NCBI RefSeq assembly: GCF_963676685.1
Contig: NC_092349.1
Coordinates: 63,438,924-63,502,923, forward strand
Direction: 5' to 3'
From: Mytilus edulis
Taxonomy: Eukaryota
DNA: 64,000 nucleotides
The first letter of the stretch is position 1, and every line of letters starts with the position of its first letter. The notes beneath the pieces are model-generated. The model was not told the origin of the DNA and made no database searches. It was given only the letters and a program-made list of their open reading frames with translations. The position numbers were made by a program, and so were the translations under genes. Below are positions 5,741 through 62,091 of this stretch, in pieces.

Positions 5741-6130
5741 CTGCAAGATAACAAATTAGATTGATTGTTGGTTGCTTAACGTCCAGTGGCAAATGAACAA
5801 ATAAGATGATAATGTCTTGTCTAATTACGTTGTACATTACTAGTATTTGAAAGGTGAATAATATGACCAGATAACTCTAAGAAATATTTTTAAAATTGTT
5901 TGTTCCTATTATGCTACGTTTTCTTTCTCTATTTTATATAACGTTTTTATGGTGTACTAGTTTATCATCTATTTATTCCTCCGCAAATTTAAATAAACAT
6001 GCAAAATATTTTTTAAATACGAAAATTCAAACGATCGCATCAACAAAAGAAACACGAAACATGCACCAATAGATCAACGATCAATTTATCTTCTTTTTAT
6101 CGTCATTCCACTGATTGGAACTATATTTAC

Positions 6131-6481
6131 CTTATCTGTTAGAACATAGGCGTTGACAACATCTACAACTTCTTCATAGGCTCCTGGGAGATAAGCTCCG
6201 GTCTTCTTCACCAGCCATTCCTCACCGGTTACCCTAGCAACACCTTGTCTATCAATAGTCTCCTTCCTAGCCCTCAATCTAATGGCCTGGTTAGGTCTAA
6301 TGACTGTGGCTCTGACAGTCTCCTCAATAACAACCTCTTTCCTTGGGATATATGTTCCTGGTCCTTCAAATAGCCACTCATCCCCAGCTGTTCTCTTTTC
6401 TTCATCATCGTCTTCAAAGTCTAGAATAGCTCTGAGCCGAAGAGCGGAGTTGGCTGCTACCACCTTCAGGGAGGTTACAAC
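6131..6481 (-). CDS. MVP: Major vault protein, coding exon 3 (vault repeat domains)
   Basis: Translation [117 protein letters not shown] contains the hallmark MVP repeat motifs ([31 protein letters not shown]). The exon is 351 nt, phase 0. The acceptor is cgtag and the donor GTAAAT (revcomp of 6125-6130). Confidence 0.9.
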
Positions 6482-19957: not shown

Positions 19958-21751
19958 CGGAGGGTCACAATTTCAGCAGATAAGACACAGAACTGTTGAG
20001 ACAAGATATCAATTTTTTTAACCAAACAATCTATATCCTCATCTATGAAAGAACAAATGACTTATTGTTTTAGACAAAACCCATCTGGTATCAAGGACTT
20101 TTTGGTTTGACTTCTATCCAAGTACTTTTAACATGCGACTTCAATGATTTTACAGAAGTCCATGATGTTGTTACCACCTGACATAACAAACTGGTACACA
20201 CTATACTTATATATGGCAAAAATATATCAAACACTATTTTACAATTGCCGATCGCCCACAAAACCAGATAGACACTGGATTTTATTATAATCTATCATTA
20301 ATACACATAATATTTACACATAATATTTTATGCAAATAGTATCTATGAATTGAAAAAAAATTACTCTGTCATAAACGAATCCGCCGGCCAGGAAAAATCA
20401 ACAACCAAGTTCACTGGTGTCAACGTGATAATCGTAACTGCAATAACGATCATCCCAATATGGCGGACACAAATTTAGGAAGTTACCTTAGTCGATATGG
20501 AAACCTGTGTTCAAACCCAAATGCTCGGAAGATCGTCTCGAGAGGTGAACATTGGACAGTACTGAAAAATAGCTTATGTTTACATAAACAAAATGTCAAC
20601 AAAATGTGTACTAGTAAACAAAATACCAATATATACATGTAGTACAAAACAAGAAAAATCAAACAATAATGAACCAACATTAAACTGAACTTAACCAGTT
20701 CGAAGTTGGCGAAATAATGGTTTAATAGGGAAATTAACCCGCTAAAATGACCACTCACGTGATACTACAATTGATATCATGTGTCCATACATATACATTT
20801 TGTATTTGAAAGACCCGTTAGTACCATAATTTTCCTCTATACTTCGAAACGCGGAAAATTATAAGAACAATTTGGTTGAATCACAGACGTCATACATGTG
20901 TTTTATGTAGGGCGAACTTGCAACCAAACAGGCAAATACATTGGCCACACATTACTGGTGATGAACTTCTCAGGATAATATAATAATACTTTTTAAATTT
21001 CAAAATATCGTTCAATTAATGTCAACAAGGCAGGGACACGTCGCTTTCAGTGATTATTTGTAATGGGAATCTTAATTATTTCTTTATGCCAGCATAATGG
21101 TTCCGGTCAAATTGGCGTTAACCCGATAGAGAGTAACATGTTTTAGTTTGACAAAGAGCTTGTCTTGATACCTGTGAATACTGTAAATCACTGGTTATTG
21201 TTGGTGGTACAAGTACAAAAAATGAGTAATTTTGTATCTGCATCCTTTGTGTCATTCTGTAGTAGTAGAGACGGTTTAGTTTTAGGCACCCCAAAAACGC
21301 AGGGCGAGAGGGCGCAGCCAAATATGGCCAACACCCGCCCCTTTATCGAAACGTCCCCTCCGGCTGACCAAATATGGTCAGCTGACTAGGACGACACAAT
21401 ATGACTCATAAGTCCATCGTTCGTAATTACGCTCAGTTGGAATGACTCATATCCACAAATAAGGTAAGAACGTTACAATATGACTGGTCAGACGTGACTC
21501 ATGTTGATCGGGGATAATTCAAAAACGGAAGGGTGATATCCATATACGGACATGTATCGAATCAACCAATGGCAAAGACGGAACGAAAGTATTGTTTTAT
21601 GCAACCACAAAAACGCAAGGCGCTAAGACGCTGACGTCATATGAACAGTATGACTCACGTAGATCTTTGCCAATTCTAGTATGAAGGGCTATATATCAAA
21701 ACGGAAGCACCAGATGTCGGATTATGACTCTTGGACCACCATATGATGAAT

Positions 21752-22078
21752 TCCATATATGGAAAGCGACCACAATACCCTATGACCATATATGGAAATT
21801 ATGACCAAATTTGGTAAGAACCTTATTTTCACTCAAAATAAACATACATGACCATATATGGAAATCGACAAAACAACCTATGACCATATATGGAAATCAT
21901 GACCAAATTTGGTAAAAACCTTATTTCCGTTGAAAAATCAAAATAAAATACATGACCATATATGGAAACCGACCAGATACCCTATGATCATATATGGAAA
22001 TGATGACCAAATTTGGAAAAAAACTTTTATTTTCACTCCAAAATCAAAATAAACATATATGACCATATATGGACAGCA
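21752..22078. repeat. ~110-bp tandem repeat x3 carrying perfect CArG boxes (CCATATATGG), left arm; followed by two CACGTG-containing 98-bp repeats (22079-22200)
   Basis: The unit catgaccatatatggaaatcgac..ccctatgaccatatatggaaatcatgaccaaatttggtaa.aaccttatttt.c is repeated. CCATATATGG occurs ~7 times. aggtcacgtgatcgtatcgaggaac occurs twice. Confidence 0.8.
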
Positions 22079-22325
22079 GGTCACGTGATCGTATCGAGGA
22101 ACGTTAACTCTGGTACAAAACAAGGGAAGCAACTCTGTATATATATCTCTCGTGGAGTGACAATTCAACGAGGCAAGGTCACGTGATCGTATCGAGGAAC
22201 TCTGATACAAAAAAGGATAGCAACTCTTCATGATGTGAGCATCAATCACCGATTAATCGTATCGTGTTCGGGGCAAATAGAAAAAATACCAACACAGATG
22301 TCAGTTTCATATATATTTATTACAT

Positions 22326-22766
22326 TCATTCGTACAATGCAAGCAGTTTGTCGTCGTTACTCATCGAGTCTCTAGACGAAAAATCTTTCACAATGTCTTC
22401 CATGCTAATGTTTCTATATCTCATCTTCACGAAATGTACACAATAGAGTCCGCATGTATCGGATGATCCCTGTTGCACTTGAGTCGTACTGAATCTGTAT
22501 TGAGGTCCATTGGCGATGAGCACGTTCCTGAAGCGACGAAGGTAATACTCCGGAGAACGTCCGAACGAATCGAAAAATTCGACGGGTCCCTCTCGCGGGA
22601 AGTGGAACGCCACCCAGTGAATGCGCTTGTCGTCGCAGTCGTCCGTGTTGACGACGAAACTGCGGGGCCTGTTCGAGACTTCATCCGGCAGTTCATCGAC
22701 ACAACACACGGTCGCCGGCAGGTCTTCGAGATAACACTCCAGTTCGTATCCGAAGGTTCCCTCCAC
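22326..22766 (-). CDS. Adenain-like (peptidase C5, adenovirus/Polinton-type) cysteine protease domain ORF, left palindrome arm
   Basis: The 146-aa ORF MEGTFGYELECYLEDLPATVCCVDELPDEVSNRPRSFVVNTDDCDDKRIHWVAFHFPREGPVEFFDSFGRSPEYYLRRFRNVLIANGPQYRFSTTQVQQGSSDTCGLYCVHFVKM... matches adenovirus protease motifs recalled from memory. These are the catalytic His (GGVHWMAFAW ~ RIHWVAFHF), the Asp/Glu region (LFEPFG ~ FFDSFG) and the Gln...Cys region (QSVQGPNSAACGLFCCMFL ~ TQVQQGSSDTCGLYCVHFV). The ORF is GC-rich and intronless, in an AT-rich setting. Confidence 0.75.
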   Translation of the reverse strand: MEGTFGYELECYLEDLPATVCCVDELPDEVSNRPRSFVVNTDDCDDKRIHWVAFHFPREGPVEFFDSFGRSPEYYLRRFRNVLIANGPQYRFSTTQVQQGSSDTCGLYCVHFVKMRYRNISMEDIVKDFSSRDSMSNDDKLLALYE

Positions 22767-23005
22767 GCCGTCGTCTTCCGTTCTGCATCGTTTGGCGGAT
22801 GGTTCTTCGCCACAGTCCCTATCTTGATGGATCTCAAGTCAATGACTTGTTCACGGAAGGATCGCATCATCGGAACCTGTCGGTGTTGGCTGTGAATCAG
22901 AACCTGTATTTCGGGAAGGATCCGACTCAGAGAAGAAACTGTCACTACCTGGTCCTCTTCGACAATCCAGTCGATCGCCAGCCCGTCGCCACGCTAGGTA
23001 GACAG

Positions 23006-23774
23006 ATGTATCCGAGTCAGAGACACCTCTTGATGCAAACGTTCCGAGAGGCCACGAGGAGACCCTTCGGATACCTTGTGGTGGATCTGAAGGCCGCTAC
23101 ACCCGAACACTTGAGATTACGTAGCGACGTCTTGGGCGGAGGCGAGGACGACGCCGAAGCCGAGGACGAAGACGTCGATTCCACCGGAAGCGAATCGAAC
23201 ACCATGGAATTCGAGGAAGAAGACGTCGGAAGCGAATCGGACCTGATGGCTTGCCGCGCATGCGGACTGGTATTTGCGCACGTCCGGGGACTTGAGATCC
23301 ATCAAGAGAGGGACTGTGGCGAAGAACCATCCGCCAAACGATGCAGAACGGAAGACGACGGCCTGGAGGGAACCTTCGGATACGAACTGGAGTGTTGTGT
23401 CGATGAACTGCCGGATGAAGTCTCGAACAGGCCCCCGCAGTTTCGTCGTCAACACGGACGACTGCGACGGCAAGGGCATTCACTGGGTGGCGTTCCACTT
23501 CCCGCGAGAGGGACCCGTCGAATTTTTCGATTCGTTCGGACGTTCTCCGGAGTATTACCTTCGTCGCTTCAGGAACGTGCTCATCGCCAATGGACCTCAA
23601 TACAGATTCAGTACGACTCAAGTACAACCGGGATCATCCGATACATGCGGACTCTATTGTGTACATTTTGTGAAGATGAGATATAGAAACATTAGCATGG
23701 AAGACATTGTGAAAGATTTTTCGTCTAGAGACTCGATGAGTAACGACGACAAACTGCTTGCATTGTACGAATGA
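23006..23774 (+). pseudogene. Second copy of the adenain-like protease gene (right arm), with acidic N-terminus and C2HC finger; frame broken by +1 C in a C-run (23432-23436)
   Basis: Frame A from ATG 23006 reads MYPSQ...GGGEDDAEAEDEDVDSTGSESNTMEFEEEDVGSESDLMACRACGLVFAHVRGLEIHQERDCGEEPSAKRCRTEDDGLEGTFGYELECCVDELPDEVSNRP. The protease domain RSFVVNTDDCDGKGIHWVAFHF...CGLYCVHFVKM...LALYE then continues in the +1 frame to the stop at 23774. The left copy has gcccc where the right has gccccc. Confidence 0.6.
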
Positions 23775-24034
23775 ATGTAATAAATATAAATGAAACTGAC
23801 ATCTGCGTTGGTATTTTTTCTATTTGCCCCGAACACGATACGATTAATCGGTGATTGATGTTCACATCATGAAGAGTGGCTTCCCTTTTTTGTATCACAG
23901 TTCCTCGATACGATCACGTGACCTTGCCTCGTTGAATTGTCACTCCACGAGAGATATATATACAGAGTTGCTTCCCTTGTTTTGTACCAGAGTTAACGTT
24001 CCTCGATACGATCACGTGACCTGCTGTCCATGAC

Positions 24035-24360
24035 CCATATATGGTCATATATGTTTATTTTGATTTTGGAGTGAAAATTAATGTTTTTTTTCCAAATTTG
24101 GTCATCATTTCCATATATGATCATAGGGTATCTGGTCGGTTTCCATATATGGTTATGTATTTTATTTTGATTTTTCAACGGAAATAAGGTTTTTACCAAA
24201 TTTGGTCATGATTTCCATATATGGTCATAGGTTGTTTTGTCGATTTCCATATATGGTCATGTATGTTTATTTTGAGTGAAAATAAGGTTCTTAACAAATT
24301 TGGTCATAATTTCCATATATGGTCATAGGGTATTGTGGTCGTTTTCCATATATGGAATTC
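24035..24360. repeat. Mirror copy of the CArG-box tandem repeats (right arm)
   Basis: This is the reverse complement of 21752-22078 (tttccatatatggtcat... units). Confidence 0.8.
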
Positions 24361-25769
24361 ATCATATGGTGGTCCAAGAGTCATAATCCGACATCTGGTG
24401 CTTCCGTTTTGATATATAGCCCTTCATACTAGAATTGGTAAAGATCTACGTGAGTCATACTGTTCATATGACGTCAGCGCCTTAGCGCCTTGCGTTTTTT
24501 GCGGTTGCATAAAACAATACTTTCGTTCCGTCCTTGTCATTGGTTGATTCGATACATGTCCGTATATGGATATCACCCTTCCGTTTTTGAATCATCCCCG
24601 ATCAACATGAGTCACGTCTGACCAGTCATATTGTAACGTTCTTACCTTATTTGTGGATATGAGTCCTTCCAACTGAGCGTAATTACGAACGATGGACTTA
24701 TGAGTCATATTGTGTCGTCCTAGTCAGCTGACCATATTTGGTCAACCGGAGGGGACGTTTCGATAAAGGGGCGGGGCTTGGCCATATTTGGCTGCGCCCT
24801 CTCGCCCTGCGTTTTTGGGGTGCCTAAAACTGAACCGTCTCTACTACTGTTCGGTCTAATATCGTAAAACGTCTATGCAATTTTTACACTCTTTCAGTGT
24901 TTAATTGAAACAAAGAAATGTCCAAACAAAACCCGGAATGTTCTAGCCCTAATGAAGAGTGGCAATTTTCCTAAGCAGAAAGATTTCTTTTCTTGTGGTG
25001 CAATGATTTGCCTATACAGCAAAATTGGTAAGATATTAGTCTTGTATCTATTGTCCACACAACGCACGATTCCTAGCAAGAATGATCAATGTTTCAATGT
25101 CAGTGTCATGCTCTGAGTCAATTTAACTTTTAACCCAATTTGCTTGTCCTTGGTGTGCACATGATTTTTTTTTCGGTTTATAATTCCCTGCTAGGTTCAG
25201 CCTCGTTTTGGATAAAATTATCCGTCTGATCAACAATGTCGTGAAATGTTTACACTATTTACTGGCTTTGTAATAACACGAGCAACACGACAGGTGCTAC
25301 ATGAGGAGTAGGATATGCTTACCTTTCTGATCACCTGAAATCACTCCTAGTTTTGGATGGGGTTCGTGTTCTTGTACCCCTATTTGTGACATTTTGTCCA
25401 CCCATCATTGTCAATAAAATGGAATTTGATGCAACTGTCGTACAAGTGAGAAGTTTACCGCTATAAAACTATATGTTCAATCCACCATTTTCTACATTTG
25501 AAAATGCCTGTACCAAGTCAGGAATATGACAGTTGTTGATCACTCGTTTGATGTGTTTTATCATTTGATTTTGCCATTTGATTAGGGACTTTCCGTTTTG
25601 AATTTTCCTCAGAGTTCAGTATTTGATTTTTGTCGAGCCTGCAACTTTTGTTGCAGGAAGCTCGACATAGGGATTGTGATCCGGCGACGGCGGCGTTAGC
25701 TAACTTCTTGAATGCTTCATACTTAGTATATGGATGCCTCATGTTACGAAGTTTCCTTCAGTCACATGT

Positions 25770-26870
25770 CCAATGTCCTTGACCTCATTTTCATGGTTCA
25801 GTGACTACTTGAAAAAAGGTTAAGATTTTTTTGTAATGTTAAATTCTCTCTTATTATGAGTAATAGGATAACTATATTTGGTATGTGCGTACCTTGCAAG
25901 TTCCTCATGCCCGTCAAACAGTTTTCACTTGACCTCGACCTCATTTTATGGGTCAGTGAACAAGGTTAAGTTTTGGTGGTCAAGTCCATATCTCAGATAC
26001 TATAAGGACTGTAAGGTGTTCATGTCCAACTGGCAGGTGTCATCTAAATTAATCTTGACCTCATTTTCATTGTTCAGTGATTATAGTTAAGTGTGTTTTG
26101 TTTTGATCTGTTTTTCTTATACTGTATGCAATAGGTCTACTATATTTGGTGTATGGAATGATTGAAAGGTGTACATGTTTAGCTGGCAGGTGTCAGCTGA
26201 CCTTGACCTCATTTTTATGGTTCAGTTGTCTTTGAGTTTGGATCTTTTTCTCTAATACTTATTGCAATAGGTCAACTATATTTGGTGTATGGAAATATTT
26301 TATGATCTATTTGTCAGCCGCATAGGTTTTATTTGACCTTGACCTCATTTTCACGGTTCATTGCTCAGTGTTAAGTTTTAGTGTTTTGGTCTGTTTTTCT
26401 TAAACTATATGCAATAGGTCAACTATATTTGTTTTATGGAAGAATTGTTAGCTGTACATGTCTGCCTCATATGTAAATATAAAAAAGAAGATGTGGTATG
26501 ATTGCCAATGAGACAACTATCCACAAAAGATCAAAATGACACATGGTTCATCTGATAACAACATCATGGACTTCTGTTAAATCATTGAAGTCGCATGTTG
26601 GACGTTAAAAGCACTTTGATAGAAGTTAAACCAAAGCGTTCCTTGAAACCAGATGGTTTTGTTCAAAACAATAAAGTTTTATTTGACCTTGACCTCATTT
26701 TCACGGTTCATTGCTCAGCGTTAAAGTTTAGTGTTTTGGTTTGTTTTTCTTAAACTATATGCAATAGGTCAACTATATTTGTTTTATGGAAGAATTGTTA
26801 GCTGTACATGCCTGCCTGATATGGTTCTTCTGACCTTGACCTCATTTTTATGGTACATTGGTCAATATTT
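25770..26870. repeat. Satellite-like family, ~150-bp units (..gaccttgacctcattttcacggttcattgctcagtgttaagttt...tatgcaataggtcaactatatttg..), x ~7; two near-identical copies at 26330-26470 and 26680-26820
   Basis: Direct reading. An inverted partial array of the same family is at 57940-58320. A SINE-like insertion sits at 26465-26660. Confidence 0.75.
26465..26660. mobile_element. SINE-like dispersed repeat (~190 bp; tail ...tgtgtcattttgatcttttgtggatagttgtctcattggcaatcataccacatcttctt in revcomp)
   Basis: The same tail is at 16560-16640(+), 40600-40700(+), 48990-49080(+) and 44575-44640(-). The head is shared with 20040-20190. Confidence 0.55.
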
Positions 26871-28905
26871 AGTTTTCTTGGTTAAGTTTATGTGACAGTT
26901 GTTATAAAGCTATAAATTTAGGACTATCAAAATAATATCAATGATTGTAAAGAAGGCAAGACATTTCAGCAACTGAGGAATTGACTAAAATTGTGTAAAT
27001 AATAATAACCAGGATATATAGCTTGGACAACTTATTAAAGCAATTGAACTCAAAGTAATTAGCCGTTGCAAAGTGTTGAAGAAGAGATAAATGTGAAAGA
27101 CAAAAATTGCAATTGCCGATGCCATAATACACTCACCTGCTCAAACAAATGATAAACTATTTTTGTATTTTGTAAATAATATGTAATGTATGGTCATTGA
27201 ATAACAATTCTATGGTGGTGTGTATCACTGCTTTTTAAAAACCAAAATCCATATATTATAAATTATTGTACAAGTTATTATAAGTTAATTTTCGTCAAAT
27301 ATTGTACAAATTGTATTTTTTACAGGCACTTTTTCAATTTGTGCAACTTACAACTTGTACATAGTCAAAATACAAATTATAATTTGTACATTTTTTTTGG
27401 TACAATATTTGACAATTTTAATTTGCACAAAATGATAAACTTGAATACAACATATATAAACGTTAACAATTAAATCTTCATGAAATAGTTATCAAAGAAA
27501 ATTATGCTTCGTTAGAATTTAACAATGACTTTTAGCATGTATTCTTTTTTTCTGTATCATCCAGATAACAAGACAAGAATAAAGAAATCAAAACATTGAC
27601 ATATCTAAAACGTTTGAGTAAACGACAATGCACTTAGGACATTTTGTTCATTTCTGTTGAGCAGCAGTTTTATTTCAGCTTTGATCAATCTTTTTTCAAT
27701 TAAATTGTAGCATGAAATTTTAGTACTTAATAGGAACATGATGTTGTTGATGTGTAGAACTAAATCATGCGCATTAACAATGTGTCAGATACGATATATT
27801 TAAGCACCCTAATATAAAAATAAGGGGATGGCGTATTATTGTCAACAATCCATCAGAGGTCAAATCAGGAATATATAGGCGTATAAATGCTGTACCCTTG
27901 AACCAGGAGAAAACAGTCATACCACACGAGACGAAAATCAGACACCAACGGTTTAATAGATAACAATACAATATACGAAAACAAATATGATGGACATGAC
28001 CATATGACAACCACTGAATCACAGGCTCCTAGCATGGACTAGACACATGAAGAATGAGGCAGAGCTTTCTTAATTCTTAGTTACTAGATCTCCAGCAAGG
28101 ATGCAATGAAAAATATATAAAAAAAAATCACATGATAGTCTTAACAAAATATGATGATTGGATATAATTGTTGATGAAACAACTATCTTAGTAACAAGCA
28201 ACAAATCTGTGATAATAAATTAATACATTCTTGAAATTATACACATCTACCATTGCAATCTTAACGCATTTCCACCAGGGCTGTCCAACACTTTGATTAA
28301 AATTTACCCTTTCGTGAATGATGTACGTGCATATGTGGGATTCACAGTTTTGCTGTGAATTCTGAGTATTTTAGTAGACTCTGCATATAAAACAATATAT
28401 AATTAGAGGCTTTTGATGCTGGAACATCAACATATTATCGATAAAGAAATGACAACTCATCAACAAACTCGGGCTTTTAGAAAAGTTAAGAAATCCGATT
28501 GTTCATTGCACGTTGTATATGTTTGATTACAGGACAGAATAAATCAGATCCATACAGATAAAGAGGACAGTTTGGTCAATCTGTCTCGTGCTTTATCCAT
28601 TTTCCTGCATTTTCCTCAGTAACCTACCACAGGCACTTGTTTCTGTCAATGTGGGGTTTACTATCCATACCAGTACAAAAAAACACAAGGTAGCTAACGG
28701 AAACTTTCAATGTGTTCGCTTCAACCAATATTTTTTTAATTTCCCTTGATTTTTTCACAAATAAAAGTACACCAGTCTGTCGGTAATTGATTTATCTTTA
28801 CAATGAAACAACTTTCACGTACCTTGAGAATACCCCTCAAACAGAATAACACACTTCAGATGAAAATTATTGACCTTTTTCCAGACCATTGAATTTGTAA
28901 GGACT

Positions 28906-32711: not shown

Positions 32712-33308
32712 GCGATTGTGGAGGGAAGTCAGATATAATATTTGCTATTCCTGGGAACGCAGACATTCCGGGGGAAGAATTCTTTCCGTTTGAACGATTT
32801 TTAACCATGCTTACAGATTATTTTCAAATCGACAGAGATAATGTAAATGTTGGTCTGATATTATACGGTAGAGAAGCTGTTGCAATCAGTTGGCCGCAAC
32901 CAATGAAGGACCAAACACAAACGAATACCAGAATAAGCCTTCTTGCGCAAAGAGAATTATACAATGGAAAACTAAAAGGAGCAGCAGATGTCAAAGCGGC
33001 ACTTTACTTAATGCGACAAATGTTCAGAAATCCATCCGGTTATCCTCTGGTACTACCTAGACCCGACACCAAACAAATTGGAGTAATGTTCACCTATGGC
33101 TCAGTTCAGGCAGATATGATCCCCGATGTCATTGCAGCTACAAAACAGTTTAAGGAAGCTGGAATCGACATGTATTCAGTTGGACGGATGCCAAATGGTG
33201 AATGGTTTCCTGAGATAGCCTCTCATAAATGTAATGTTTTCTCAATGGAAAGTTACTCGGAAGGTCTAAGAGGTCTTCTCCCTTATATCGGGAGCAGTAT
33301 ATGCACAG
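32712..33308 (+). CDS. Secreted VWA + chitin-binding protein, exon 2 (von Willebrand factor type A domain)
   Basis: The acceptor is ctatttttag. The exon joins exon 1 in phase 1 (g+gc = G). Translation GDCGGKSDIIFAIPGNADIPGEEFFPFERFLTMLTDYFQIDRDNVNVGLILYGREAVAISW...KQIGVMFTYGSVQADMIPDVIAATKQFKEAGIDMYSVGRMPNGEW has VWA-domain spacing (DIIF..G / VGLILYG / TYGS..D / GIDMYSVG). The donor is cag|GTTAGT at 33309. Confidence 0.75.
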
Positions 33309-33704
33309 GTTAGTTTATTTTTGCATGTATTTTAAATCGATTTTTTATATTAAAAAAAAAATAGACACACATCCTTGTTTTTGTTTTTTGCTATGAATCG
33401 GTACTGTTAATTTTGTTTCGTTGATCATCATCGGAACTTCAATCTGATTTATACATTTTGTGTTTCTTGTTTTCTTTTGTATCCAAATACTTCTTGTAGA
33501 ATTGTATATTTTATAATTGTTTCAAAAAGAAAATTCAGAATAAACAAACAAACTGATATTTGTTCAAAATTTTATATTTTATTTATATACCATGTGTCAT
33601 ATACAAATAGAAAATATGATAAAAAGTAAATCAATAGTCTACAAGACACTACAGACACCCAAAGACATAGCAAGACGAACTCCACCAAAAACTGAGACTG
33701 ACAG

Positions 33705-35272: not shown

Positions 35273-36956
35273 GTAAGTAAAGCATGGTACATATTAACCG
35301 TCAGATATATACCTGGATATGAAAGTGCCTCTCTTAAATTACATTGAAAAAGAAAAAGATAAAAAAAAATATTTTGAAAACGAGTAAAGATATTTCACAT
35401 AATTAAAATCATTTGTCTAGGTACAAGTTACATATATATAAACTATATATATAAAGACAATCGACCATATTTATTGCACAAACACAAACACATTTACATT
35501 AAATGTTTATGGATATACAAATACATGTCTTTTATAAACTTGAATATGTACGCTTTTGTAACGCTTGTATGAAAGATCGTTCAGGGCTAACCTCAACATG
35601 ACCGGAAGGAAACCATCCCATATCTAGTGTTTCCATGTTTTAAATTTATTGTCAATATTTATGGCTTAATATCCGGGTTGTTTGCGCATCTTTTTTTTAC
35701 GTTATATAAATGAAGAGTTACGTTATGGTACATAAACGGTTGATCCCAATATTGGTAAAGCGTGCTTCATAGAGAGTTTCTTTGGTCAAACAATGGTCCC
35801 TGCAATTTATGTTTGTTTCGCATTTTGTATGTCATGTGAAGCGTTTTAAATAAATTATTTCTTTTCTTGTAAAAGAGGTTAGTTAAACATACTTGAATGA
35901 TCACTTTGATGGTCGAACATCCAAAAATCTGACCGTAAGTTTTTTAGAAGCGATGTCGTCTGCAAACTACGATGTTACTAGGTTTGTATAAATTAATCTA
36001 ATATACTTACAAGTTTTAGCTTTCTAAAAAGCTATGGACTGCTTCGCTACACCCTAATTCAAGGTAATATGTGTGCATGTGGTTGTTGAATTAGTATTGG
36101 AAATGTGGTATTTATAGATATTGATTGATATAAAATGGATGTACTTTAAAAGTGTGCGTTACATACCCATGTTTAAAAAAAAAATCTTTTTTAAAATAAA
36201 ATCAATTATAAATAGACACGACTTTTGATGTGTGCCTTTTTGGAGGTGTGCCTTAAGTTAGATTGTCAGAAAAATACAGATAATACATTTTTGTAAACAT
36301 TGTACTGATAGGAACATTGTTTAGCAAAGCAAATAGTGCAAATTGCAGAGTAACAAAGAAAATAAACACGTATTTAAAATAATTGATATTTCAATATTGA
36401 ATTTGTCTGTAAAATGTATGCATAATAAAATGAACATGAATTAATAACAGTTGATTGGAACTGAAATACACATAGTTAATTTTCCGTCATTTGATGTCTT
36501 ATCCTGGGCAAGAAAAGTCTGTATTTCCTTATCTCATTTAAGCCAATAGCTGTTGGTATATCTCAGCCTCATCATAACGCAACCAATCAGAATCTATACG
36601 TGATAAGTAATTTATTCAAGATGGCCTGTATTTTGACTAAACACTTTGAATTCGTCCTGTCAATGATGTTGGACTGATCTTCGTACATGTGTAGCGCGTG
36701 CAACACACACTTTTCGTTAATATGTCATTTAATACTAAGAAACGTAGAAAAAAAAATCATATATCTGTAATTAATCCTATTTTGCTGGACATTGAGAAAA
36801 CGGAAACAGCGGCTTTTCATTTATTTATGTAAACTAAAGGAGAACAAAAGCAACGTTTTTCTTTATTTATACAGAAAATAAATGAATTATAGTATTTCAA
36901 TGGCATACATCTTTACCATAATATGATATATGACAATTCTTTTATTTTATTTTCAG

Positions 36957-37324
36957 AATTTTGGAAGCCAAGTCCAAACCCGCCAGTTATTTGTCCGTCC
37001 TTGAATGCAATATTTCAGGATCCTTATAATTGTGCTTATCTATTCAAATGCGATTTGAATATTCCTGCGCGTGAAAGATGCCCAACAGGGATGCTCTTTG
37101 ATAACTCAATTAAAGCTTGCAATCACAAAGATGCAGTTCCATGTTACTCAATGATCACGTGTCCAAGTCACATGGGTTTGTTTCCGCATCCAGAAACATG
37201 CAAAAAATTCTTGAATTGTTTCGACAATATTCCATATGTGCAAAAGTGTCCACGTGACCTGTATTTTAACAATGAAACCAAAATCTGCGAAGAAGAGTAT
37301 AAAGTTAATTGCATATTTCACTGA
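36957..37324 (+). CDS. Secreted VWA + chitin-binding protein, terminal exon (two peritrophin-A / ChtBD2 domains), stop TGA 37322-37324
   Basis: The acceptor is ttttattttcag. Translation KFWKPSPNPPVICPSLNAIFQDPYNCAYLFKCDLNIPARERCPTGMLFDNSIKACNHKDAVPCYSMITCPSHMGLFPHPETCKKFLNCFDNIPYVQKCPRDLYFNNETKICEEEYKVNCIFH gives two 6-Cys modules with CBM14/peritrophin-A spacing. AATAAA lies at ~37547. Confidence 0.8.
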
Positions 37325-61311: not shown

Positions 61312-62091
61312 TCATAAAGCAAATGCATTACATCGGTACAGAGATAACAAATACAACAATAAATATTTACGATATGTACAAAACAAGCGAGAGAGGTTAC
61401 AAAAGTTACAAGCCAGGAGTACAAGCACGGGCCGACAAACACAAGTATTTATATTTTCTATAAAAAAAAAACAAAGCTTCTTCGGAACTGGTTTTCTTGT
61501 ACTTGACATAACTTCAGAGAATTTAACTGTATTTTGCCGTTTTGTAAAATATGCAGTTAAAAACTCTTTTCGTTTTTGATTGAAAAATTTGCATTCAAAT
61601 ATAAAATGATATTCGTCACCTATTTGTCGATTGTTACATAGACTGCAAAAGCGGTTTTCTCTGATTACGTTTTGCCATCTTCCTGTTTCAATCGGCAACT
61701 TAGTATTAGTCGTTTGAAATCGACAAAAAACAAAAGCGTCTTTGTATTTAAAATTTATACTATGTTAATTTATTTGTATATGTCTCTGTACCATTGTACT
61801 TTGGTTTATGAGAATAAAGATATATATATATATATTGAAGTCCAAAATATTAAAATATTTTCAATTTCAAGTTGTTTTTTTTTAATTTTTGTAGTTTATA
61901 CCTTTTGACAAATTTTGAATGAGGGAATTCCAGTTCTGAATATATTGATATAGCAATCTCTGCTTTATGACAGTTTTTAACCATTCTTTATTAACAAAAT
62001 TTTGTGACTCCCATATGTTTGAGAAACCACAATCTTGAAAGATTTTTTGTATAAACAAGATCCATTTTATCTGGTTATTATGTAGCGACAA
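61312..62091 (-). mobile_element. Degenerate LINE ORF2 C-terminal fragment (minus strand)
   Basis: ORF 61882-62091(-) reads ..KIFQDCGFSNIWESQNFVNKEWLKTVIKQRLLYQYIQNWNSLI.. (the conserved post-RT tail). ORF 61312-61698(-) reads ..RFCSLCNNRQIGDEYHFIFECKFFNQKRKEFL (C..LC...DE.HF.FEC motif). An (AT)n stretch and frame breaks separate them. Confidence 0.6.

Follow-up and report, generated by a model that had tools for sequence, protein, structure and literature searches.

A 3.6-kb palindrome in Mytilus edulis as a very likely Maverick/Polinton derivative with a possible copy-back origin

How did a 3.6-kb palindrome arise within a 64-kb stretch of Mytilus edulis DNA (the window, meaning the whole stretch analysed here), and what kind of element is it? 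An inverted-repeat search returned four collinear inverted blocks at this locus, which gapped alignment merged into two arms, 21261-22840 and 23289-24848. Over 1550 aligned positions these arms show 30 mismatches (98.06% identity) and 5 indels, confirming the near-perfect palindrome described in the original prediction. An inverted repeat that is 1.58 kb long and 98% identical goes far beyond what chance would give. We read the region as an integrated, dead, non-autonomous palindromic derivative of a Maverick/Polinton that was formed by copy-back, with a probability of roughly 0.55. Its identity as a Maverick-derived palindromic derivative is very likely, and copy-back as the specific origin is close to an even bet. 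The element is thus an unusual-looking representative of the already known Maverick/Polinton class, not a new kind of element.

The element consists of two inverted copies of one parental end, which comprises an ATPase-protease open reading frame (ORF), about 1.07 kb of regulatory-looking non-coding DNA and the terminus. The arms, which are its terminal inverted repeats (TIRs), make up 88% of the 3.6 kb. They enclose a unique centre of 448 nt, first given as 447 bp, and the two copies adjoin directly with no host DNA between them. A 30-nt segment at 22703-22732, originally counted as 27 nt, is found only in the left arm and is missing from the right one, which in turn has additional bases at four places (1, 1, 7 and 1 nt). 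In the palindrome region GC content rises to 39-50%, compared with about 31% for the whole window. The features of the element are the following, in coordinates of the window.

21261-22840, minus strand: left (short) arm, leading from the inner breakpoint outward through a 5'-truncated protease part and 3' non-coding DNA to the terminus
22841-23288, plus strand: unique centre, which continues the long copy inward and contains the ATPase's C-terminal part, an acidic linker and the opening half of a C2H2-like zinc-finger motif
23289-24848, plus strand: right arm, which together with the centre forms the long copy (22841-24848)
22833-22847, no strand: inversion junction 22840/22841, within the 7+1+7-nt palindrome CAAGTCA-A-TGACTTG
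21261-21274, plus strand: left terminus AGTAGTAGAGACGG, fitting the (AGT)2 Maverick end motif
24835-24848, minus strand: right terminus ...CCGTCTCTACTACT, (ACT)2 on the plus strand
22841-23134, plus strand: C-terminal ~98 residues of a packaging ATPase of the A32/IVa2 type (FtsK-HerA), NDLFTEGSHHRNLSV...LRSDVL, with the Walker A half missing
23204-23774, plus strand: right protease part, MEFEEED..., with a C2H2-like motif and the adenain domain, compared with the intact 489-aa ORF of locus L011
22326-22838, minus strand: left protease copy, LEIHQDRDC...LALYE-stop, with its frame open from the breakpoint
21753-22073, no strand: 104-nt tandem repeat of 3.1 copies in the left arm, its units carrying the CArG-like motifs CCATATATGG and CCAAATTTGG
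24035-24355, no strand: 104-nt tandem repeat of the identical type, 3.1 copies, in the right arm
21261-21592, no strand: copy-specific subterminal segment of the left arm, with TGACTCA and CCAAATATGG motifs
24517-24848, no strand: mirror copy-specific subterminal segment of the right arm

Both outer ends start with AGTAGTAG..., and the arms stop at the same base, beyond which the flanks are unrelated. The same end motif closes the related loci L001, L002, L004 and L011. Mavericks are defined by TIRs, duplications of a 6-bp target site (TSDs) and the end motif 5'-(AGT)2//(ACT)2-3' (PMC8097293). As each arm ends precisely at the terminus and neither flank has been copied, we infer that the duplication preceded integration. 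A Foldback element, a hairpin telomere and a host segmental duplication, all of which had been listed as possible origins, are rejected on the basis of the canonical AGTAGT...ACTACT ends and the unrelated flanks; the mobile element or virus-like replicon fragment, listed alongside them, is the part of that proposal that stands. Drosophila Foldback (FB) elements do resemble the window element in being dominated by very long inverted repeats with internal tandem sub-repeats. However, FB arms consist almost wholly of short tandem repeats, carry no viral genes and have other termini and TSDs, whereas the arms described here contain Maverick genes and termini, with tandem repeat taking up only 321 nt of each 1.58-kb arm.

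The coding content was then compared with known protein families. Both protease copies match Pfam Peptidase_C5 (27.9 and 29.4 bits; gathering cut-off 21.3 bits) and align to human adenovirus adenain (1avp) and the S273R protease of African swine fever virus among PDB matches, with the His (IHWVAF), Asp (FFDSFG), Gln and Cys (QxxSDTCG) motifs aligned. The proposed pair of outward-pointing adenain-like proteases is therefore present, including the peptide difference DDCDDKRIHW (left) versus DDCDGKGIHW (right). Two lesions break the right copy, a +1 frameshift within a C-run near 23436 and the in-frame loss of 30 nt (10 codons) after ~23396. In the left copy the catalytic His/Asp/Gln/Cys motifs are intact, while the ATG and the N-terminal part are missing and the junction is directly preceded by a stop codon. 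Owing to these lesions, neither copy can give a full protein, and neither is likely to yield a working one. With reference to the 489 codons of the L011 ORF, the long copy begins at codon ~170 (22841) and the short copy at codon ~319 (22840).

The centre had been described as the N-terminal coding region of the right protease. The acidic linker and the protease start are indeed located there, but most of the centre is the C-terminal part of the ATPase (22841-23134). This fragment is 74% identical to residues 145-243 of P0036 (tblastn), a protein that scores above the Pox_A32 gathering score and also matches Adeno_IVa2; 271 homologues were found. From the ATPase part, the acidic linker and then a C2H2-like motif, CRACG...HQERDC (23252-23317), continue in frame into the right protease. 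The ATPase fragment, the two protease parts and non-coding repeats account for the whole 3.6 kb, which therefore leaves no space for jelly-roll capsid genes.

The intact form of this unit is represented by L011 (505-1974 of an ENA ERZ887849 metagenome contig), where a single 489-aa ORF joins a zinc finger, a poly-Pro tract, the P-loop ATPase, an acidic linker, a second zinc finger and adenain, and is preceded by a 144-aa ORF termed geneX. The ATPase and protease of the mussel lineage thus form one ORF, whereas they are normally separate genes in Mavericks. The fusion also occurs in the gene models P0006 and P0017; in relatives at a greater distance, L085 for example, the two are separate genes, several kb apart.

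To establish the polarity of the differences between the arms, 1084 alignment columns common to the window arms and five sister arms were used. The window arms differ at 19 of these columns, with 9 changes derived in the left arm and 10 in the right, and only 6 changes relative to the sister consensus are common to both. This indicates one duplication that was followed by independent neutral decay of the arms. Because the differences are balanced private derived changes, they are incompatible with a chimeric read or with a collapsed or mis-joined assembly, and the original prediction was right to favour an old inverted duplication over an artefact. The divergence of 1.9% points to an old event, which at the substitution rates usual for invertebrates would, as a rough estimate, date back on the order of millions of years.

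It is consequently extremely improbable that the palindrome is an artefact of sequencing or assembly, for instance a long read that is a palindromic chimera, an overlooked SMRTbell adapter or two mis-joined haplotypes. Palindromic chimeras are a known long-read artefact, and the +1 frameshift in the C homopolymer could be a sequencing error. However, artefact palindromes have identical arms that usually run into the flanks, whereas the present arms carry 30 substitutions and 5 indels, with derived changes evenly split against five outgroup copies. Furthermore, the centre is defined and asymmetric, the outer ends coincide with transposon termini, and comparable palindromes exist in an independent assembly. 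An exact-protein look-up of the 295-aa ORF spanning the junction returned no record in public assemblies, leaving the junction itself without independent confirmation.

The same comparison bears on the idea of two independent head-to-head insertions of truncated Mavericks of one family, which we consider hardly credible. Transposons do nest and cluster, and such a composite would be expected to lack a TSD. Nevertheless, the arms share 6 derived substitutions and a copy-specific 332-bp subterminal segment that is absent from the sister family, and the copies abut without intervening host DNA. Moreover, insertion by an integrase requires two ends, and one-ended truncated insertions are not expected.

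ORFs in the window are sparse, and their closest protein matches are from Mytilus galloprovincialis and M. coruscus. In the independent assembly GCA_900618805.1, three loci hold four M. galloprovincialis gene models with >80% identity (P0001-P0004), all in palindromic copies. Further palindromes are found there as L002 and L004. These two members of family A have arms of ~2.2-2.6 kb that are 98.9% identical, different flanks and the same termini, (T)AGTAGTAGGG.... They share one centre, distinct from that of the window. Their long arm contains the protease, the whole ATPase and geneX, and their short arm begins at the poly-Pro (CCG)n tract of the ATPase. At least two independent centre types therefore exist among Mytilus palindromes. 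L002 is bordered by a perfect 6-bp TSD (ATTGAT/ATTGAT), and therefore such palindromes integrate as units. In the third locus, L001, the family-A junction is present and the copy is interrupted by a ~7-kb insertion.

In L001 (2301-2489 and 9684-9956), ~7.2 kb of foreign DNA, including a GTCGAGAC-rich satellite, splits the copy, and the second arm is mostly missing. Pairing of a (GGC)n tract upstream of geneX with the poly-Pro (CCG)n tract of the ATPase was considered as the driver of the sister-family fold-back and was rejected, as the non-palindromic relatives L008, L006 and L035 lack the (GGC)n tract. For the same reason, L011 may be a truncated palindrome or a mis-join.

The sister copies also bear on a host-made origin, in which the end of a single integrated Maverick was duplicated in situ as an inverted segment, for instance through fold-back at a double-strand break or through a U-turn of the replication fork. 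Eukaryotic genomes commonly contain fold-back inversions that have an asymmetric spacer and short microhomology, the 2-nt microhomology of the present junction lies inside a small palindrome, and the lack of a TSD at the window copy is compatible with such an event. Yet a chromosomal fold-back would have copied adjacent host DNA too, whereas the two arms stop at the same base of the terminus and their flanks share nothing. The sister palindromes at other loci possess both termini, one of them with a 6-bp TSD, implying insertion as a palindromic unit. Taken together, an in-situ duplication is very unlikely.

The features common to the window element and Mavericks/Polintons (Barreat & Katzourakis 2021, PMC8097293) are the (AGT)2//(ACT)2 termini, the TIRs, the adenain-type protease and the A32/FtsK-type ATPase. 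The 6-bp TSD of the sister copy and the linkage of the ATPase relatives to pPolB and the rve integrase are Maverick-like as well. In contrast, the window element measures only 3.6 kb, compared with 13-25 kb for Mavericks, whose TIRs span 100-1500 bp (PMC10748475), and it has no polymerase, integrase or capsid genes and no TSD. Its TIRs occupy 88% of its length, whereas the published Maverick TIRs are 46-1447 bp long.

Linkage was assessed by tblastn in 80 metagenomic loci recovered with the ATPase alignment, most of them on contigs of 1-5 kb. Next to the ATPase, pPolB was found in 9 loci, the rve integrase in 18, the protease in 9 and geneX in 8. The long contigs L085 and L067 hold ATPase, pPolB, rve integrase and protease all together, and in L085 they are part of a compact same-strand array of pPolB, ATPase, integrase, geneX, a 133-aa ORF, a 471-aa ORF and the protease. 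A polymerase lies beside this ATPase family in L007, L010, L062, L063, L067 and L085; in M. edulis L010, an intact 1085-aa polymerase precedes a zinc-finger/poly-Pro ATPase. The polymerase belongs to a large family, whose members carry the annotation PF03175 or the name DNA-directed DNA polymerase. Sequence searches of Pfam and PDB returned no match for the scallop polymerase ORFs, and their identity was taken from these annotated homologues. No ATPase relative was found in IMG/VR, either with one ATPase or with the ATPase alignment as query, and hence no sign of a free virus in that database.

The scallop locus L007 (Argopecten irradians, CM084267.1, 2351-12437) is a Polinton-type element about 10.1 kb long, whose TIRs measure 2.45 kb and share 99.5% identity. 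Within the TIRs lie the integrase (rve and chromo domains; Pfam rve 7.8e-15), a zinc-finger gene and the ATPase's C-terminal part, while the centre is made up of the polymerase and the N-terminus of the ATPase. Like the two mussel palindromes, this element has its ATPase ORF cut by the inner boundary of the TIR. The repeat ends, as found, showed no TSD.

The ORF geneX (137-144 aa) was located at L002:9340-9760 (minus strand), L011:114-548, L008:9138-9569 and L085:12829-13242. It carries a G(S/T)WECALLE motif, is always upstream of the ATPase in the mussel copies, and in L085 stands between the integrase and the pair of 133-aa and 471-aa ORFs. It had no Pfam match, its word-level homologues were in Mytilus only, and tblastn detected none in the 64-kb window. 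Its AlphaFold model is all-beta with a mean pLDDT of 55, too poor for a fold search or a capsid claim; geneX could be a small capsid or accessory protein. In the metagenome contigs L030 (1-4221) and L037 (403-6013), inverted repeats of 200-340 nt surround only the ATPase and a zinc-finger gene or the protease, and these repeats reach the contig ends. This suggests further short derivatives of this element group in other invertebrates.

The window element carries one end of the genome twice, the second time inverted, around an asymmetric loop of 448 nt, and both ends are identical. The junction sequence across 22840/22841 is GGATCTCAAGTCAATGACTTGTTCACGG, and the two parental breakpoints share a 2-nt microhomology (TC); the asymmetric loop and this microhomology fit a template switch. 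A 6-nt GACTTG present at both parental breakpoints was rejected as the driver of the junction, because it is a direct repeat that alone cannot pair into an inverted junction, leaving 2 nt as the true microhomology.

In the copy-back scenario that we favour, the parent would have been extrachromosomal and linear, replicating by protein-primed strand displacement. The polymerase would have copied inward from one terminus as far as the ATPase (codon ~170), switched onto the nascent strand ~450 nt behind by means of the 2-nt microhomology, and copied back outward to the terminus, giving a molecule with two identical replication and integration ends. An integrase supplied in trans would then have inserted this palindromic molecule, after which the arms would have diverged by 1.9% and both protease copies become disabled.

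Definitions of snap-back or copy-back defective viral genomes are available (PMC13506859). Like the window element, these genomes show an inverted duplication of one end, an asymmetric loop, retention of both replication ends and loss of essential genes, which makes them helper-dependent. They are, however, extrachromosomal products in infected cells, while the window element is chromosomal and apparently millions of years old, and its replicative origin is a matter of inference. Long inverted repeats are reportedly also found in adenovirus incomplete-particle DNA. In poxvirus inverted terminal repeats (ITRs) and in linear Streptomyces chromosomes, one end can be swapped for an inverted copy of the other, whereby genes are drawn into the repeat. 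The scallop element L007 resembles such terminal arm replacement or ITR expansion; the replication chemistry and the scale differ, and in the window element the replacement removed nearly the entire genome.

Another route to the same structure would start from a full-length Maverick whose native multi-kb TIRs already held the protease (and ATPase) genes. A single deletion joining 22840 of the left TIR to 22841 of the right copy, either before transposition or in situ, would have removed the polymerase, the integrase and the capsid core. Deletion derivatives are the usual source of non-autonomous DNA transposons, and the 2-nt microhomology suits end joining equally well. Gene-bearing long TIRs are known in this class, both in the scallop element, with integrase and part of the ATPase in its 2.45-kb repeats, and in butterfly polintons, with hexon and adenain in ~2-kb TIRs (preprint 10.1101/2025.02.07.637071). 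The latter resemble the window element in having kb-long TIRs with adenain, and thus two protease copies per insertion. However, these lepidopteran polintons are full length, with a complete duplicated hexon and adenain and an intact core, whereas the window element has lost the core and one of its arms stops within a gene. Furthermore, a long-TIR parent of this family was not found. In all three palindrome types (the window element, family A and L007), one of the arms breaks off within the ATPase ORF, so that a useless gene fragment remains, which resembles repeated accidents rather than an inherited TIR. An internal deletion would also leave unexplained how the long TIRs arose, which again comes down to an inverted terminal duplication. 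We regard this route as the main rival to copy-back, possible but less likely. By either route, long TIRs ultimately stem from an inverted terminal duplication.

Several observations weigh against a copy-back Maverick derivative. Copy-back was not observed directly, and cannot here be separated from a central deletion in a long-TIR parent, for which the lepidopteran polintons provide a precedent. Within the 64-kb window, tblastn found neither pPolB (query: mussel pPolB P0138) nor an rve integrase, and Maverick membership of the element rests on two hallmark genes and the termini. No autonomous partner with these termini was found, the four annotated proteins above 80% identity all lying in palindromic copies, and the centre junction of the window element is known from this one copy only. 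The ends of the window copy also show no 5-6-bp direct repeat (TTCTGT versus GTTCGG), in agreement with the earlier remark that the flanks tctgt and gttcgg form no clear TSD, and L004 likewise has none (AACAAT versus AAGAAC). The TSDs missing at both loci may be due to a later rearrangement of the flank, to ectopic exchange among copies or to linear DNA having been captured by end joining. A BLAST search for an empty site with 1 kb from each flank against the window and all loci returned only distant repeats >400 bp away.

If the copy-back origin is true, these palindromes would be genomic footprints of Mavericks replicating extrachromosomally as linear protein-primed genomes, and defective-interfering-like palindromes would re-integrate and spread, the sister family being present at at least three loci. 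To our knowledge, this mode of replication has been assumed since the discovery of Mavericks and never demonstrated. The inverted duplication of one end recurs: Mytilus has two centre types and Argopecten one, and the ATPase ORF is cut in every case. Such recurrence is the trace expected of strand-switching in linear protein-primed replication and offers a modest lead on how Mavericks replicate. The broader proposal that the mussel palindromes and the scallop element with 2.45-kb TIRs are all endogenised copy-back defective genomes is doubtful at present. In addition, if the 1.58-kb inverted repeat were transcribed, a long hairpin RNA might feed small-RNA silencing of related Mavericks. Genome annotation should treat the region as a Maverick/Polinton-derived repeat and mask it, and its two protease copies should not be taken for host genes.

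About 1.07 kb of each arm is non-coding and repeat-rich. The outermost 332 bp of each arm are unlike the sister family, apart from the terminal ~60 nt, and a 27-nt subterminal motif gave no match in a metagenome scan. CArG-like sites, CC(A/T)6GG, are concentrated in the palindrome arms, which contain 21 of the 31 sites in the window, where 6.3 would be expected for its full length. The arms further carry several motifs of the types TGACTCA (AP-1-like), TGACGTCA (CRE-like) and CACGTG. The motif-dense stretches 21300-22080 and 24030-24800 may, from their motif content, be likened to a viral enhancer or origin region. The dense CArG/AP-1/CRE-like motifs and the ATPase-protease fusion in a single ORF are small extra curiosities of this element.

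Other repeats lie on both sides of the palindrome. [quoted passage not shown] On the right, ~0.9 kb away, tandem and dispersed repeats of 136-350 nt (families D2-D4 and D7) occupy 25767-26883, and sequence from 25250-25624 turns up again, in part, at other places in the window and at other mussel loci, probably as another repeat family. An inverted pair of 52 nt (20130-20181 and 26548-26599; 92% complementary, 6.4 kb apart) brackets the region; its members may be two copies of a small repeat, with no evidence that they bound a larger element.

Elsewhere in the window, coding fragments of host or other origin are located at 6086-6463 (minus strand), 32807-33313 (plus), 36923-37324 (plus) and 61312-61698 (minus). 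The coding fragments include an exon with Major Vault Protein repeats (Pfam 2.8e-36), one ORF with a VWA domain and a pair of Peritrophin-A domains of the chitin-binding type. One further ORF of the window has a CxxC...GDEYHFIFEC motif and no Pfam match, and is possibly the tail of a retroelement ORF.

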